Assembly: GCA_025336685.1 (NCBI GenBank)
Contig: GCA_025336685.1_4717.1
DNA: 64,000 nucleotides
Strand: one strand, 5' to 3'
Origin: Escherichia coli
Lineage (GTDB): Bacteria; Pseudomonadota; Gammaproteobacteria; Enterobacterales; Enterobacteriaceae
The notes under the pieces were generated by a model. The model made no database searches. It worked only from the letters and a program-made list of their open reading frames with translations, and was not told where the DNA came from. Positions 27,329 through 30,597 of the stretch are shown here, piece after piece. Position 1 is the stretch's first letter, and the number at the start of each line of letters is the position of its first letter. The position numbers were made by a program, and so were the translations under genes.

Positions 27329-27862
27329 TTAATCTCCTTTGTGTTTTACGGACGATGTTAACCACGATGATCTTACAGTGAAACCCTCGGATTCATAGAA
27401 CGCCTGGGCTTCATCGTTATCGGCACGAACATCCAGGCCGATAGAATGACCACCACACTGGTAAGCGATGTTACGTGCTTCATTCATCAAGGCGTGACCG
27501 ATACCGCGCCCGCGATATTCGGGTTTTACAATAATCGATGTAACGTCATGAATGCCCATATGGCTCTCTGCGCTCACTTCCAAGAGGCCCACCGGCGTCG
27601 AAACGATAGCGTCGATCATAACGACCAGCATTGCGGCGTCCGGTAAACGCTTTTCTAATTCTAAGGAATCATATTCACGTTTTAAATCGGGAATATTCCC
27701 AAACATAAACGTGGTGCCCCACGCCTCCGATTCCGCATCATCGAGAATACGGTACAGTTCACGAATCTGTTGTTTATGTGGATAAAGATGTGGATCAGCG
27801 ACCGTCGAGGTGCTAATGCAAAAGAACGGTCGTTCGTTAATAACCAGTGTTTTGATGCTCAT
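27329..27862 (-). CDS. GNAT-family N-acetyltransferase
   Basis: Acetyl-CoA binding motif RGRGIGHALM and C-terminal AQAFYESEGF. Confidence 0.7.
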   Translation of the reverse strand: MSIKTLVINERPFFCISTSTVADPHLYPHKQQIRELYRILDDAESEAWGTTFMFGNIPDLKREYDSLELEKRLPDAAMLVVMIDAIVSTPVGLLEVSAESHMGIHDVTSIIVKPEYRGRGIGHALMNEARNIAYQCGGHSIGLDVRADNDEAQAFYESEGFTVRSSWLTSSVKHKGD

Positions 27863-28365
27863 GCTAAAATTCCTTCATTACCTAACAGTCGATTACGATG
27901 ACGTCGGTACATTTGACAAAGTGTTGTAATTTGATAAAGTTTGTTGTAACGTACTTCGATACGTTTTTGCACCTCTTTCCACGGAAGTTTATCGTATTGC
28001 CGATAACGATGGATTTCATTCAACATCCGAAGACGCGTAGGATCGGTATTCTTTATTGTTACGAGCTTCACGCGTTGGTATCCGCGCTGCAACCCCGATT
28101 CCGAATACGTAATGCCGAACTCATCCTGAATGATAGTAATGATCTCCCGCCATCGGCGCTTCTCACCGTCACGTAAATGGACAACCCGCGATAAGATATC
28201 GTTCCGATTACGATGACTCAGTTTAATGTTAAGCATTGAAGCAATCGCGCTGATTGCTCTCTGACTCCGTCCTAACGCATCACCGATCTCTTTCGATGTC
28301 ATGACGCCAGCGTTTCGGCGTATGAATGCGATTTCGGTTGTTGTGTATTCTTTACCTGCTGCCAT
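27859..28365 (-). CDS. Myb/SANT-like DNA-binding protein, paralog 6 (168 aa)
   Basis: Repeat pattern (Y/W)xxxExxxL...EIGDALGRSxxAIS and a third Trp-spaced repeat; member of the six-gene tandem family. Confidence 0.5.
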   Translation of the reverse strand: MAAGKEYTTTEIAFIRRNAGVMTSKEIGDALGRSQRAISAIASMLNIKLSHRNRNDILSRVVHLRDGEKRRWREIITIIQDEFGITYSESGLQRGYQRVKLVTIKNTDPTRLRMLNEIHRYRQYDKLPWKEVQKRIEVRYNKLYQITTLCQMYRRHRNRLLGNEGILA

Positions 28366-28829
28366 TTTTTACCACGTGTGTTATAATAGTAACGCTGACA
28401 AAGATGTGTGTGATGGTACTCCCGTTTGAACTCGACGTTGATAATGCGAGTAACTTCTCTCCATCTGACCCCTTCATGTCGCAGTGCTGTGATACGGTCT
28501 GAAATTTTGCACCATTCATCTGGGTCGTATCGTCGCAGTTTATGGCGTCGTATTACGGAGGCGACACTCGCTCTCGATCGGCCAAGATGGTTTGACAGTT
28601 GTTTAACCGAGTATCTGTGGATATTGTCGCGAATATAGGAAATCTCGTTGTTCGTATATGCCTCATTGGTTCTTGACGAAGGGAACAACATATACAACTT
28701 ATTCTTAATCGCGCTTTCTGTGCGTTGAAATACCGTAGTCAAATCACTAACTGGTGGTCTGGGTATCTGATCCGCGTAACTCTCAAGGCGTGAGAGTTCC
28801 TCATCTGTCCAGCGACGATACTTGCGCAT
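28299..28829 (-). CDS. Myb/SANT-like DNA-binding protein, paralog 5
   Basis: RRWTDEELSRL...LSNHLGRSRASVASV; start MRKYRRW with AAAGGAG SD (ORF track extends to 28913). Confidence 0.5.
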   Translation of the reverse strand: MRKYRRWTDEELSRLESYADQIPRPPVSDLTTVFQRTESAIKNKLYMLFPSSRTNEAYTNNEISYIRDNIHRYSVKQLSNHLGRSRASVASVIRRHKLRRYDPDEWCKISDRITALRHEGVRWREVTRIINVEFKREYHHTHLCQRYYYNTRGKKWQQVKNTQQPKSHSYAETLAS

Positions 28830-29304
28830 GGGCAACTCCTTTGTTTTTCGTGTAATAGCACCAACGTTGATACAACGCATGTTTATTCGTTGTAATCCCA
28901 AATTTAACAACAACGTCGTATGTGATAATATTCCAATTTTGGGTAACGTTAAGTCGTTCCGCGATAAACGCGATAATCGCTTCCCGTTCTTGCTTGGTTA
29001 ACGCACGACGAATTCCATTAAGTCGTATAAACTGACGAACCGAGTCATACGAACGGTTTAAATCATACGCAATCTCTCGCAATGATTTTTGTTTGATTAC
29101 AGACTTGATGTACGTTCGTTCCGCTTCCGTATACGGCCGATGCTTCTGACGTTGACGTATTCCCAAGCGTCCTAGACGCGCGTCGACGCTAGCGCGTGTT
29201 CGTCCTGCCTGTTGCGCGATTTCATCAATCGTCAGCGACGTGTTCAAATACAGATGCGTAACATCTTTCAGCTCGTCGTCACGCCATGGTTGAGATCGTC
29301 TCAT
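28801..29304 (-). CDS. Myb/SANT-like DNA-binding protein, paralog 4
   Basis: QPWRDDELKDV...IAQQAGRTRASVDARL...LREIAYDLNRSYDSV; AGAGGAG SD. Confidence 0.5.
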   Translation of the reverse strand: MRRSQPWRDDELKDVTHLYLNTSLTIDEIAQQAGRTRASVDARLGRLGIRQRQKHRPYTEAERTYIKSVIKQKSLREIAYDLNRSYDSVRQFIRLNGIRRALTKQEREAIIAFIAERLNVTQNWNIITYDVVVKFGITTNKHALYQRWCYYTKNKGVAHAQVSSLDR

Positions 29305-29782
29305 CTTGGACTCCTCTTTTCTTTCTATGATGCCACCAACGCTGATAGACAGCTTGCTTCGTCCGCGTTATACCAAAATGCGCATTAACCCGTTCAGCGA
29401 TATGGTACCAATCCTGCGTTTCTTCTAACAACGCATCAACGAAAGCTATGAAGATCTTAGTATCATCCTCGCTTAACCGCTTGAAACCATGGCGGTGTGC
29501 TATTGTTCGAATACTGTTTGGATCTCTGTTTAAATCGCGTGCGAGCTGTTTGTAACTTTTGTGCTTACAGTGTAGTCTGATATGTTCCAATTCGTCGGCG
29601 CTGAAACGTTTATGTGGTTTACGGCGTTCAACGTTTAAGTGCATCAACCTCGATTTAATTGCACCGTACGTTGTTTCCATGATTTCTGCGATTTCACGGA
29701 TTTTTAATTTCGGGTGACGGTAGTACAATTTCAACAACTGTTCATCGTACTCACGATTCCATCGTCGTACTGGAGGTTTCAC
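29279..29782 (-). CDS. Myb/SANT-like DNA-binding protein, paralog 3
   Basis: RRWNREYDEQLL...IAEIMETTYGAI...LARDLNRDPNSI; GTG start 2 nt after the upstream stop. Confidence 0.45.
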   Translation of the reverse strand: MKPPVRRWNREYDEQLLKLYYRHPKLKIREIAEIMETTYGAIKSRLMHLNVERRKPHKRFSADELEHIRLHCKHKSYKQLARDLNRDPNSIRTIAHRHGFKRLSEDDTKIFIAFVDALLEETQDWYHIAERVNAHFGITRTKQAVYQRWWHHRKKRGVQDETISTMA

Positions 29783-29784
29783 AA

Positions 29785-30264
29785 CTAGATTTCTCCTGTT
29801 CTACGCGTTTTTAATGCTTGAGTGTAGTAGAGTGTATGAACACCACTTAACGTGTAATGGGTGTTAAATTCGTTATTGATGATATTCTGTATTCTCTCCC
29901 AGGTTCTGTTCTCTTTTCTAAGCGCATGTATTCGGTGATAAATCATCTCTCGACGTTGCGCTTTGCAAGCAACAATACCGTAACGGTAGCAGAGTTTAGC
30001 GATTGCGTCCACGCTACGATTGAACATTACCGCGGCTTCTTTCACGCTGTGCGTCTTGAGATAATCGGCTAACATCACGCGTTCTTCGAAACAACAATAG
30101 CGATGACGCGACATGAGTTTCCAGCGCTTGCGATTACGGTTAATTCGACCTTGAACCGAACCTTCTGTTCGACCAAGCCGTTCCGCAATCTCTTGCATCG
30201 GTATACCGTTTCGGTACAGGGTAATCAACATCGCATCTTCTTCGGGTGTCCAGTCCTTGACCAT
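29785..30264 (-). CDS. Myb/SANT-like DNA-binding protein, paralog 2
   Basis: WTPEEDAMLITLYRNGIPMQEIAERLGRTEGSVQGRINRNRKRW: near-canonical Myb repeat with three spaced Trp. Confidence 0.55.
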   Translation of the reverse strand: MVKDWTPEEDAMLITLYRNGIPMQEIAERLGRTEGSVQGRINRNRKRWKLMSRHRYCCFEERVMLADYLKTHSVKEAAVMFNRSVDAIAKLCYRYGIVACKAQRREMIYHRIHALRKENRTWERIQNIINNEFNTHYTLSGVHTLYYTQALKTRRTGEI

Positions 30265-30276
30265 AGTACCACCCCA

Positions 30277-30597
30277 TCAACGTCTTACTTTAAGCGGTAT
30301 CTTGTTTCGGAAACAATAACACCGGATGGCGTGTACGCTACGATTCATTATTTCAGCAATTTCTTTTAGGGTATGTTTCTTTGCAAGCATAGCAATCCTA
30401 ACCCTTTCTTCTGGTGTGTAAGCTCCCCCGCGAGGCGGTAGATCACTGCGTTGTTTCCTCAACCTGATGTAACGTGCGCGAATAGAACACGGTGTTCGAT
30501 TCATGCAACGTGCTACTTCTTTATAACTCGCTTTTGGTGACGTGCTAAGAATAAGCAGCAACGCTTCATCTTCTTTATCCGTCCAACATTTACCCAT
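30277..30597 (-). CDS. Myb/SANT-like DNA-binding protein, paralog 1
   Basis: [11 protein letters not shown]...[16 protein letters not shown] and second repeat [12 protein letters not shown]...[12 protein letters not shown]; start MGKCW with AAGGAG SD (ORF track starts at TTG 30624). Confidence 0.5.

Follow-up and report, generated by a model that had tools for sequence, protein, structure and literature searches.

A conserved array of six predicted helix-turn-helix DNA-binding proteins in a Goslar-like jumbo phage

Six adjacent minus-strand genes (A to F, positions 27859-30597) lie within the 64-kb stretch of DNA analysed here (the window). They raise the question of what kind of proteins they encode and what a set of six would do for the phage. 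The window shares approximately 92% identity with Escherichia phage Goslar (Chimalliviridae) and, judged by its sequence, the phage is a relative of this nucleus-forming jumbo phage. The counterparts of A to F are Goslar gp114-gp119, for which no published work was found.

Organization and conservation of the array

An earlier note on this DNA had described six consecutive leftward genes of 106-176 aa, and these ORFs are indeed present: A (27859-28365, 168 aa, gp114), B (28299-28829, 176 aa, gp115), C (28801-29304, 167 aa, gp116), D (29279-29782, 167 aa, gp117), E (29785-30264, 159 aa, gp118) and F (30277-30597, 106 aa, gp119), all on the minus strand. All six proteins are strongly basic (pI 9.8-10.5, net charge +12 to +16). 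The short overlaps and individual Shine-Dalgarno (SD) sites that the note reported are also borne out. Overlaps are found inside the array at B/A (67 nt), C/B (29 nt) and D/C (26 nt) and at its edges with the neighbouring acetyltransferase (A/GNAT, 4 nt) and ligase (ligase/F, 8 nt) genes, while E/D and F/E are separated by 2 nt and 12 nt, respectively. AGGAG-type sites precede B (AAAGGAG), C, D and F, and weaker SD-like sites precede E and A. Gene D has a GTG start that is kept in every lineage, with its AGGAG site upstream. For A, the long start is preferred over the GenBank start (147 aa) because both the extension and the overlap that it creates are highly conserved: the N-terminal 21 aa are 100% conserved in four lineages and changed in a fifth at residues 2-6 and at only a few sites beyond, and the 66 nt of A that overlap B are 95-100% identical between lineages, compared to 84-91% in the flanking sequence.

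The array appears to be part of a longer conserved unit. At both ends of this unit are hairpin-TTATGC elements similar to the late promoters of phiKZ, for which the motif is T(-3)ATG(+1) (PMC7598289). At the head of this predicted unit, a hairpin (32998-33026; RNA fold dG -27.8 kcal/mol) is followed by TTATGC (TATG at 32994-32991, minus strand). This element (32991-33026), a predicted terminator and TATG-type promoter, is conserved in lineages L002 and L008, where the stem changes are compensatory, and is one of a recurrent intergenic class of the form CCCTCCC-loop-GGGAGGG-TTTATGC. Downstream of it on the minus strand are a small ORF (32656-32967, gp122 homolog) and, overlapping it by 4 nt, an NAD-dependent DNA ligase gene (30590-32659, gp121 homolog; assigned from the Goslar annotation and Pfam ligase domains). 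The array follows, and then a GNAT acetyltransferase gene (27329-27862, gp113 homolog) and another ORF (26899-27327, gp112 homolog). A second minus-strand element (26869-26894), with a hairpin at 26874-26894 (dG -16.2 kcal/mol) and then TTTATGC (TATG at 26872-26869), is predicted to end this unit and start the next. It is conserved in Goslar, L002, L006, L008 and L010, with unchanged stem arms and ATGC and a variable loop; Goslar, L006 and L010 deviate in the one or two bases preceding ATGC. Reading TTATGC as a promoter of the non-virion RNA polymerase is an extrapolation from phiKZ. The earlier note had placed the genes in the early region. That placement is unsupported; the sole motif evidence points to this TATG-type promoter, which in phiKZ belongs to the non-virion RNA polymerase class. 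Goslar gp120 is absent from the window and marks a variable spot bordering the array. Synonymous divergence (dS) is uneven along the array.

The paralogy of A to F is, by sequence comparison, far above chance. With E-values computed at a database size of 1e8 residues, BLASTP links all six proteins (C-D: 2e-22, E-F: 1e-7, C-E and B-D: 1e-5, A-B: 3e-4). Together with Pfam and PHROG matches and an AlphaFold2 model of E (see below), this upholds the proposal of six paralogous genes with HTH DNA-binding folds. In a phylogeny of the six copies, adjacent genes pair as closest relatives (E+F, 98-100% bootstrap; A+B, 94%; C+D, about 100%), so the array grew through old local duplications. Each paralog group is monophyletic across lineages and the paralogs are only 22-38% identical to one another, which indicates that the expansion is ancient. 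The idea of a family expanded in place thus stands, as an old rather than a recent event. Absence or collapse of the array in relatives was looked for, and instead all six genes were found between the NAD-ligase and the GNAT acetyltransferase in each of the five Goslar-like lineages sampled, with constant gene order and copy number. The array genes are under strong purifying selection (dN/dS 0.03-0.25; B: 0.13-0.20, C: 0.13-0.16). Identity within ortholog groups is 0.82-0.90 and peaks in the three recognition helices, compared to 0.45-0.50 between paralogs. HMMs of the protein modules match no genes other than A to F within the 64-kb window, and a word-indexed search of 5.8 billion proteins with paralog C found only Goslar-like orthologs (72-91% identity).

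Modules, predicted fold and family assignment

Three types of module make up the proteins. R1 and R2 are three-helix HTH domains homologous to each other; R3, also an HTH, is unrelated to them in sequence and matched by HMM searches in Goslar-like proteins only. B, C, D and E have the order R1-R2-R3 (in E: R1 30106-30264, R2 29971-30105 and R3 29788-29970, minus strand). A lacks R1 and reads R2-R3-R3' (R2: aa 5-49; R3: aa 51-109 and aa 111-165), so that A to E each have three HTH modules. F has two, R1-R2 only. Its orthologs in L002 and L008 are 152 aa long and include R3, and this module has evidently been lost in the clade of the window and Goslar. The linkers between modules are short and mostly basic, and the R1-R2 linkers of C to F contain 5-7 K/R. 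An AlphaFold2 model of E (pLDDT 82) has nine helices forming three three-helix HTH domains, and R3 modelled alone has a pLDDT of 86; the underlying alignments are shallow (10 and 6 sequences) and, with a pTM of 0.40, the models do not fix the relative arrangement of the domains. The three-helix fold superposes on Myb repeats and also matches that of the N-terminal DNA-binding domain of GcrA-type proteins. On the combined evidence, A to F are very probably DNA-binding HTH proteins. Protein-protein contacts are another use of HTH domains, which are found in nucleases, methylases and terminases as well.

The Myb/SANT-like label of the earlier note holds only in part. F exceeds both Pfam Myb thresholds (Myb_DNA-bind_6, PF13921: 39.5 vs 22.9 bits; Myb_DNA-binding, PF00249: 33.4 vs 24.4 bits) and the fold is compatible, but the other five proteins fail: E scores 19.4 and 16.4 bits, respectively, and A to D have no match to either model. 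The repeat that had been quoted as a close Myb match belongs to E rather than to F. Weak sub-threshold matches of D to Myb_DNA-bind_3 and _5 lie in R3, which by itself is a generic HTH that fits generic bacterial HTH models better than Myb and has no specific Myb affinity. The Trp-spaced, Myb-type repeats are likewise not found, as no copy has a W-x19-W-x19-W triad. Tryptophans are at positions 72 and 129 in A; 7, 106, 123 and 156 in B; 7, 124 and 148 in C; 8, 125, 149 and 150 in D; 5, 48 and 122 in E; and 5 in F. R1 opens with its one W and R2 with Y or F (C in E), and R3 has a single W midway along. The HTH core said to be present in every copy, [EQ]IA..LGR[ST]..S[VI], is strictly matched in E only and is degenerate in the others. 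RefSeq labels Goslar gp119 as 'SANT/Myb domain-containing'.

With the sigma-70 region 4 model Sigma70_r4_2 (PF08281, cutoff 25.7 bits), E (38.3) and D (29.0) exceed the cutoff, and C (23.5) and F (19.3) fall short. A and B have no match to this model, and A matches PF04545 weakly (10.6 bits, E-value: 0.44). In the Pfam check, F passes the Myb thresholds, D and E pass Sigma70_r4_2, and A, B and C pass no model. No Pfam match to Sigma70_r2 was found in any of the six, scores with TIGR02937 (cutoff 42.9) are 12.3-21.5 bits, and specific sigma models are all far under their cutoffs. As region 2 is lacking and the whole-protein models score below cutoff, membership in the sigma-70 family of sigma factors was rejected. 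Full GcrA membership was rejected as well: C and E score 18.3 and 15.6 bits with Pfam GcrA (PF07750, cutoff 26.9), aligning to positions 2-62 of the 155 in the model, and the remainder of each protein consists of more HTH modules.

The best PHROG family for all six proteins is PHROG 323 (E-values, A: 2.8e-10, B: 5.6e-17, C: 2.3e-16, D: 3.4e-14, E: 9.2e-18, F: 9.7e-20), a family that has no curated cutoff and whose name, 'transcriptional regulator, D5-like', is an annotation label. Secondary PHROG matches are to HNH-endonuclease families (phrog_1891, 8446 and 7545). In a PDB profile search, the R1-R2 unit is matched throughout by Cbp2 (2lvs; E-value: 2.3e-9) and less well by c-Myb (5.5e-4). Among solved structures, the best relative is the archaeal CRISPR repeat-binding protein Cbp2 when judged by sequence and the DNA-binding domain of GcrA when judged by structure. 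The HTH_Cbp1 model of NCBIfam (NF040595), with an equivalog cutoff of 140 bits, gives 25.7 bits for D (E-value: 8.6e-6) and 17.4 for C. Cbp1 equivalog membership was rejected on these scores, and the link to Cbp2 is one of distant homology.

Proposed function of the array

The six proteins are most likely sequence-specific DNA-binding regulators, and the role of transcription or nucleoid regulators suggested by the earlier note is plausible. The proposed model, to which we assign a probability of roughly 45%, is as follows. A to F would be co-transcribed with the DNA ligase and GNAT acetyltransferase genes from the TATG-type promoter. Each protein would bind to double-stranded DNA in monomeric form, much as Cbp1/Cbp2, Myb R2R3 or paired domains do. 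On an extended asymmetric site of approximately 15-25 bp, R1 and R2 would insert their recognition helices into neighbouring major grooves, with the basic linker tethering R1 to R2 on the DNA. R3 would either read DNA as well or recruit a partner protein, as the third HTH of Cbp1 does. Because the recognition-helix sequences are specific to each paralog and retained from lineage to lineage, the six proteins are proposed to recognise six different sites. They would act on the phage genome, where they may activate, repress or insulate particular transcription units. This model is supported by the fold models, the Cbp2, PHROG 323 and Pfam matches, the charge, the basic R1-R2 linkers (as in Cbp2), the maintained paralog-specific helices, the retention of six copies in five lineages, the precedent of Cbp1 HTH3 for a divergent third domain and the conserved elements at the ends of the unit; support for phage DNA as the target comes from the complete degradation of the host chromosome by Goslar (PMC13282480). 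Against the model, repeated sequences that could serve as targets are not conspicuous in the 64-kb window, the family is absent from other isolated chimalliviruses at tblastn sensitivity, and HTH domains have the other uses named above. A bolder version of the model, which we consider unlikely, is that A to F represent the first case of dedicated transcription factors in a nucleus-forming phage. R1-R2 would bind each protein's own extended site near a subset of the hairpin-TTATGC promoters, and R3 would bring in or keep out the non-virion RNA polymerase of the phage or an antitermination partner. If so, these factors would supply promoter selectivity and timing that a four-base TATG motif cannot give, and the Goslar lineage would have gained a regulatory network by gene duplication, like the eukaryotic Myb families.

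It is also conceivable, but rather improbable, that A to F are architectural, chromatin-like proteins that coat or bend phage DNA with low specificity and so organise, compact or protect the genome in the EPI vesicle, in the phage nucleus or during packaging, instead of regulating promoters. Small size, high positive charge, several paralogs from one predicted unit and the lack of a discrete repeated target motif in the window all suit such a role, as do the chromatin-like structures formed by Cbp1 with Cren7 (PMC10883916) and the relatives with 3-10 repeat units per chain, which look suited to coating DNA. However, paralog-specific conservation of the recognition helices and deep paralog divergence are more typical of distinct specificities, bulk coating has no obvious need for six different proteins, and other chimalliviruses do without the family. 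The target may otherwise be the host, with cytoplasmic A to F binding host DNA or proteins early in infection (for example host promoters, defence loci or CRISPR repeats) after the model of RAY gp094, which decorates the host nucleoid. RAY gp094, the only described chimallivirus DNA-binding regulator, does bind host DNA; the closest solved relative of A to F binds CRISPR repeats; the adjoining GNAT is similar to phage acetyltransferases that have been implicated in the takeover of host transcription (PMC13282480); and the family is an accessory one confined to Goslar-like phages of enterobacteria. This takeover or anti-defence role is nevertheless distinctly unlikely, as Goslar degrades the host chromosome and the RAY authors see little use there for a host-DNA binder, the predicted promoter does not belong to the AT-rich early class, and no known anti-defence similarity was seen (in searches outside the PADLOC and anti-CRISPR libraries).

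The above-cutoff Sigma70_r4_2 matches of D and E and many weak matches to ECF-sigma region 4 could mean that the HTH modules act as sigma region 4, docking on the phage multisubunit RNA polymerase to supply promoter recognition; the promoter specificity of the phiKZ non-virion polymerase beyond TATG is unsettled (PMC7598289). We regard this as very unlikely given that sigma regions 2 and 3 are lacking, TIGR02937 is matched at only 12-21 bits against 42.9, phiKZ-type non-virion polymerases already have a sigma-like fifth subunit (gp68), and other chimalliviruses with the same polymerases lack the family. Least probable is an origin of the present proteins as relics of mobile elements, in which HTH domains that once targeted HNH homing endonucleases or transposases would persist, whether as neutral remnants or in a selfish or immunity role. 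The HNH-endonuclease PHROG matches, mycobacteriophage fusions of the repeat unit with HNH endonucleases or methylases, the variable gp120 spot at the array border and the uneven dS, which suggests recombination, are in its favour, but A to F contain no nuclease or transposase domain, each copy is under strong purifying selection, and the five lineages do not differ in gene order or copy number. Homing elements usually have a patchy distribution.

Comparison with known systems

The R1-R2 unit belongs to a very large family found elsewhere as long poly-repeat proteins. An exhaustive HMMER search returned 10,707 relatives. The best relatives are 300-900 aa long with 3-10 tandem copies of a unit of approximately 48 aa (consensus RWT.EE...EIA..LGRS..AV..RA..LGL). 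Some phage relatives carry a GcrA family annotation, and in mycobacteriophages the unit occurs in fusions with HNH endonucleases or methylases. Members of PHROG 323 include Listeria phage B025 gp44 and B054 gp65. In PHROG 323 and the metagenomic poly-repeat proteins, for which no tested function was found, the repeats are in one long polypeptide or a single gene, whereas in the array they are split over six genes with two or three modules per gene.

Within the Chimalliviridae, the family is absent from other isolated phages at tblastn sensitivity, so its role is not general to nucleus-forming phages. A parallel is gp094 of Erwinia phage RAY, which is also an accessory, non-core HTH DNA-binding protein of a nucleus-forming phage. 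RAY gp094, however, belongs to the XRE family, is encoded by a single gene and was shown to bind host DNA, and RAY leaves the host chromosome undegraded. No other DNA-binding regulators are discussed in the chimallivirus literature searched. Like the R1R2R3 region of c-Myb, A to F have three-helix repeats of approximately 50 residues in tandem, up to three per protein, but without the regular Trp triad and, for five of the six, without passing Myb models. Compared to the Caulobacter cell-cycle regulator GcrA (DNA-binding domain: PDB 5YIU), they lack the C-terminal sigma-interacting domain and have the HTH domain in tandem.

A to F also resemble the CRISPR DNA repeat-binding proteins Cbp1 and Cbp2, small basic proteins that consist only of tandem imperfect three-helix HTH repeats (two in Cbp2) with basic linkers (Cbp2: PMC3597662) and have a target site of about 25 bp. 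The three repeats of Cbp1, of which HTH3 recruits Cren7 (PMC10883916), parallel the layout of R1-R2 and a divergent R3, and the weak match of D to the Cbp1 NCBIfam model spans about 120 residues. No CRISPR-like array was found in the 64-kb window. A to F differ from Cbp1 in scoring far under its equivalog cutoff and in having an R3 unrelated to R1 and R2. Cbp1 and Cbp2 are crenarchaeal and each encoded by a single gene, whereas A to F are phage-encoded and stand six in a row.

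Gene organization and module composition

The segment of the window from 27300 to 30700 has 91.7% nucleotide identity to Escherichia phage vB_EcoM_Goslar, a nucleus-forming chimallivirus of the genus Goslarvirus; no further match to it was found among 50,697 phage records. The earlier note reported six consecutive leftward genes here, and six minus-strand ORFs are indeed present: A (Goslar gp114; 27859-28365), B (gp115; 28299-28829), C (gp116; 28801-29304), D (gp117; 29279-29782, GTG start), E (gp118; 29785-30264) and F (gp119; 30277-30597). They are flanked on the same strand by a GNAT acetyltransferase gene on the A side (27329-27862) and an NAD-dependent DNA ligase gene on the F side (30590-32659). 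A protein 99% identical to E is encoded on the IMG/VR contig L010 (237,533 bp). GenBank already lists the genes as encoding hypothetical proteins, and RefSeq labels one of them SANT/Myb. The genes are closely spaced, overlapping by 4-67 nt or being separated by 2-12 nt, and AGGAG-type ribosome-binding sites precede B, C, D and F. All six proteins are linked by BLASTP at a search space of 1e8 residues (C-D E-value: 2e-22, E-F: 1e-7, C-E and B-D: 1e-5, A-B: 3e-4), which bears out their description as paralogs.

Alignment of A-F resolves three helix-turn-helix (HTH) module types: R1 (W-(T/R/N)-x-(E/D/K)-(E/Y)…(E/D)(I/L/V)(A/T)…R(T/S)..(S/A)(I/V)), R2 ((Y/F)(T/S)..E…(K/R)(E/Q)(I/L/A)(A/S/G)..(L/M/F)(N/G)R(S/D)..(S/A)(I/V)) and R3 (…W..(I/V)…(I/V).(V/N/D/A).(F/Y)…(Y/T/R)….(L/V)…). 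HMMs of these modules match only the six array genes within the 64-kb window. B, C, D and E have the order R1-R2-R3, F has R1-R2 and A has R2-R3-R3', where R3' is a second R3. R1 and R2 are homologous (hhalign probability 96%, E-value: 3.5e-9). No relationship of R3 to either is detectable (hhalign probabilities of only 8-13%), and it is therefore classed as an HTH type of its own. In the AlphaFold2 model of E (pLDDT 82), nine helices form three three-helix bundles whose relative orientation is undefined (pTM 0.40); R3 modelled alone is also a three-helix bundle (pLDDT 86).

The GenBank start of Goslar gp114 (NC_048170) is an internal ATG that gives a protein of 147 aa. The start of A lies 63 nt further upstream, giving 168 aa and regaining helix 1 of the R2 HTH (28302-28365, minus strand). 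The 21 additional N-terminal residues are fully conserved in four lineages, and the public start has therefore probably been placed too far downstream. The A/B overlap is 95-100% identical in nucleotide sequence across lineages, compared to 84-91% in the adjacent sequence, which suggests that it is under dual-coding constraint.

Family assignment and distribution

The Myb/SANT-like character proposed for the whole array is retained in part. F passes the Pfam models Myb_DNA-bind_6 (39.5 bits), Myb_DNA-binding (33.4 bits) and HTH_23. E passes Sigma70_r4_2 (38.3 bits), HTH_23 and HTH_28, and D passes Sigma70_r4_2 (29.0 bits), but no Pfam model is passed by A, B or C. The repeat that had been quoted as a close Myb match belongs to E and reaches neither of the Pfam Myb cutoffs. 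The tryptophan triad typical of Myb is absent: a single Trp occurs at the start of each R1 and another in the middle of each R3, while R2 begins with Tyr or Phe (Cys in E). The HTH core attributed to every copy is found in its strict form, [EQ]IA..LGR[ST]..S[VI], in E only. Weak Myb_DNA-bind_3 and Myb_DNA-bind_5 matches in D had raised the idea that R3 is specifically Myb/SANT-like; in a fold search with R3 alone, small-terminase, DeoR, TetR, LuxR and sigma region-4 domains outrank any Myb domain, and this assignment was rejected. The best family for all six proteins is PHROG 323 (transcriptional regulator, D5-like; E-values from 1e-10 to 1e-20). NCBIfam gives only sub-threshold region-4 matches to sigma models and a weak match of D to Cbp1, a three-HTH CRISPR repeat-binding protein. 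Among solved structures, the best sequence match is 2lvs_A (E-value: 2.3e-9 over the whole R1-R2 unit), which is Cbp2 of Hyperthermus butylicus (PMC3597662). Judged by these profiles, A-F are best classified as tandem homeodomain-like, Myb-like or GcrA-DBD-like HTH proteins, with Myb/SANT a fair nickname for F only.

A word-indexed search of 5.8 billion proteins with C returned only Goslar-like orthologs (72-91% identity), to which a six-paralog profile added a handful of weak outsiders. An exhaustive HMMER search of 1.84 billion representatives identified 10,707 relatives at E ≤ 1e-3 and 58 at E ≤ 1e-30. Besides the Goslar-like three-module proteins, the best matches are proteins of 300-900 aa that carry the R1-R2 unit 3-10 times per chain as head-to-tail repeats of approximately 48 residues (RWT.EE…EIA..LGRS..AV..RA..LGL) and pass several Pfam HTH, GcrA and Myb models. 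In isolated phages, the unit occurs in Listeria phages B025 and B054 (labelled D5-like regulators), in Streptococcus phages (labelled GcrA family) and in mycobacteriophages, where it is joined to an HNH endonuclease or a methylase; no chimallivirus other than Goslar is among these matches. R3 matched only Goslar-like proteins in a search of limited sensitivity, and a Foldseek search of viral predicted structures (E ≤ 1e-3) returned only Goslar's own paralogs.

Evolution and transcriptional context of the array

The array was compared in five lineages: the window, Goslar (L001) and the Goslar-like contigs L006, L002 and L008. In all five, the ligase and GNAT genes enclose six genes in conserved order, so the array is neither absent nor collapsed in these relatives. 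C orthologs are 72-91% identical to that of the window, with that of L008 more divergent still. In all comparisons, each of the genes has a dN/dS of 0.03-0.25. The trees recover every paralog group as monophyletic (81-100% bootstrap) and join neighbours in pairs (E+F 98-100%, A+B 94% on R2, C+D about 100% on R3). This topology shows that the array arose by stepwise local duplication before the lineages split, in agreement with the earlier note's expansion in place. A 57-nt direct repeat with 70% identity (30001-30057 and 30325-30381), in the R2-coding parts of E and F, appears to be a nucleotide-level trace of the E-F duplication. In L002 and L008, F is a 152-aa protein with a full R3, a module lost in the window and Goslar. 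Between the window and L002, dS is lowest for B and E (about 0.4), intermediate for A (0.9) and highest for C, D and F (1.5-2.4); such unevenness between adjacent genes indicates probable mosaic recombination of Goslar-like lineages within the array.

The F edge of the array appears to be an indel hot spot. A 235-aa gene, gp120, separates F from the ligase gene in L001 (6302-7009) and in the metagenomic relatives L006 (5997-6704) and L007 (5997-6704) and is missing from the window (at approximately 30597), L002 and L008. It has no HTH and no family match and is excluded as a seventh member. Upstream of the ligase gene, a Dam-like N6-adenine methyltransferase gene (Pfam MethyltransfD12) is found in L002 (2424-3250), L003 (2426-3250) and at the equivalent position in L004-L007. 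It is intact in L003 and L005 (274-275 aa), whereas L002, L004, L006 and L007 have it as two separate ORFs; neither the window (at approximately 33950) nor L008 carries it. As GcrA-type domains can read adenine methylation, this gene is of possible interest. Assemblies submitted under the names Escherichia coli (including O157) and Salmonella enterica serovar Panama also contain Goslar-like contigs of 180-209 kb (L004 [GCA_015624795.1], P0005, P0007 and P0175), which suggests phage carried along with, or contaminating, bacterial isolates; the host range may include Salmonella.

An intergenic element recurs in the window, consisting of a GC-rich hairpin (CCCTCCC-loop-GGGAGGG) and, a few bases after it, T(T)TATGC on the coding strand. 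Its TATG sites lie at about 63491, 56955, 51312, 43266, 32994, 26872 and 20012 (minus strand), and similar elements are found at 1106-1170, 11706-11841 and 44862-44914. Three copies have the 18-mer GTTTATGCTGAT(A/T)AAAGG in common. The element resembles a terminator merged with a phiKZ-type TATG promoter, and such elements may define the transcription units of Goslar-like phages. Two of them, both on the minus strand, bracket the array: one before the small gene preceding the ligase gene (hairpin 32998-33026, dG -27.8 kcal/mol; TATG 32994-32991) and one past the gene after GNAT (hairpin 26874-26894, dG -16.2 kcal/mol; TATG 26872-26869). Both are kept in other lineages, the upstream one with compensatory stem changes. 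They predict a unit of about 6.1 kb comprising a small ORF, the ligase gene, F-E-D-C-B-A, the GNAT gene and one more ORF.

The motif T(-3)ATG(+1) defines the late, non-virion RNA polymerase promoters of phiKZ, while its virion polymerase has AT-rich early promoter motifs roughly 10 nt long (PMC7598289). By extrapolation, the array does not seem to lie in an obviously early unit. Goslar RNA-seq detects 175 of 249 genes by 5 min. Around the array, 16 sigma-70 promoters were counted, below the chance expectation of 21.6. The motif TATATTAC, which may be the phiKZ early consensus, was rejected as an early-promoter motif, its three occurrences not being above chance (2.6 expected). A related 17-mer, TTTCACGGCTATATTAC, is identical in two intergenic gaps (22999-23015 and 53145-53161, minus strand); TATATTAC itself is found at 63527-63534, and the heptamer TATATTA occurs four times on the coding strand, each time between genes. 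Motifs of the TTTCACGGCTATATTAC type may be the AT-rich early (virion RNA polymerase) promoters of this phage group. Elsewhere in the window, a coding sequence at 7932-9479 is tandemly repeated about seven times (62-73% identity), with a period of 120 nt (40 aa) and a super-period of 360 nt, and probably encodes a repetitive fibre-like or structural protein domain.

Proposed function and comparison with known systems

That A-F bind DNA as such is highly probable. Identity within ortholog groups is 0.82-0.90 and peaks in the three recognition helices, while that between paralogs is about 0.45-0.50 throughout, a pattern that fits six different, maintained binding specificities. The host chromosome is destroyed by Goslar (PMC13282480), so phage DNA is the more likely target. 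We give a probability of roughly 0.45 to the reading of A-F as six sequence-specific regulators directed at the phage genome, although a search of the 64-kb window for repeated candidate target sites or CRISPR-like arrays found nothing convincing.

The proposed model for DNA recognition is as follows. The analogues Cbp1/Cbp2, Myb R2R3 and paired domains suggest that each protein would bind double-stranded DNA as a monomer. The R1 and R2 recognition helices would occupy successive major grooves, tethered by the basic linker (5-7 Lys/Arg in C to F), and an extended asymmetric site would be read. The sequence-distinct, lineage-specific R3 could recruit a partner, as in Cbp1, or act as a third reading head.

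Other roles are conceivable for such proteins. With pI values of 9.8-10.5 and net charges of +12 to +16, all six are strongly basic, and they may be architectural proteins that coat DNA, an unlikely reading to be set beside recognition helices maintained separately in each protein. Host-directed factors like RAY gp094 would act on a chromosome that the phage destroys, and this role is decidedly improbable. The Sigma70_r4_2 matches of D and E recall polymerase-bound specificity factors resembling sigma region 4; a sigma factor proper is rejected because region 2 is not present, and we hold the looser version to be very unlikely. Finally, weaker secondary PHROG matches are to the DNA-binding parts of HNH-endonuclease families, but there is only a slight chance that A-F, under purifying selection, are relics of homing-endonuclease DNA-binding domains. 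Were the proteins only architectural or host-directed, the result would be an annotation upgrade for eleven hypothetical protein entries in two Goslar records and little more.

As sequence-specific regulators, A-F would bear on how nucleus-forming jumbo phages control transcription. Transcription in these phages is carried out by multisubunit RNA polymerases of their own; how the non-virion enzyme chooses promoters beyond the four-base TATG, and how middle and late timing is set, are open questions (PMC7598289). Recent reviews on these phages make no mention of a phage-encoded transcription factor, and no discussion of Goslar gp114-gp119 was found in the full-text literature, including the Goslar cell-biology paper, the core-genome paper and reviews. 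Within this phage family, Goslar serves as the E. coli model and is already in laboratory use, so the conserved array provides a defined group of candidate regulators that can be tested. Its existence is no surprise in principle, but it offers a handle on transcription control in these phages.

Cbp1 and Cbp2 have a binding site of about 25 bp (PMC3597662). The third HTH of Cbp1 recruits the chromatin protein Cren7, and the Cbp1-Cren7 complex suppresses cryptic promoters and enhances proper transcription (PMC10883916). Tandem-HTH DNA binders are thus already known; what is new is the six-gene paralog array, its lineage-specific third domain and its setting in a model nucleus-forming phage. The array is also a clear case of a DNA-binding family diversified by local duplication inside a virus; elsewhere, the repeat unit is found in single long poly-repeat proteins.
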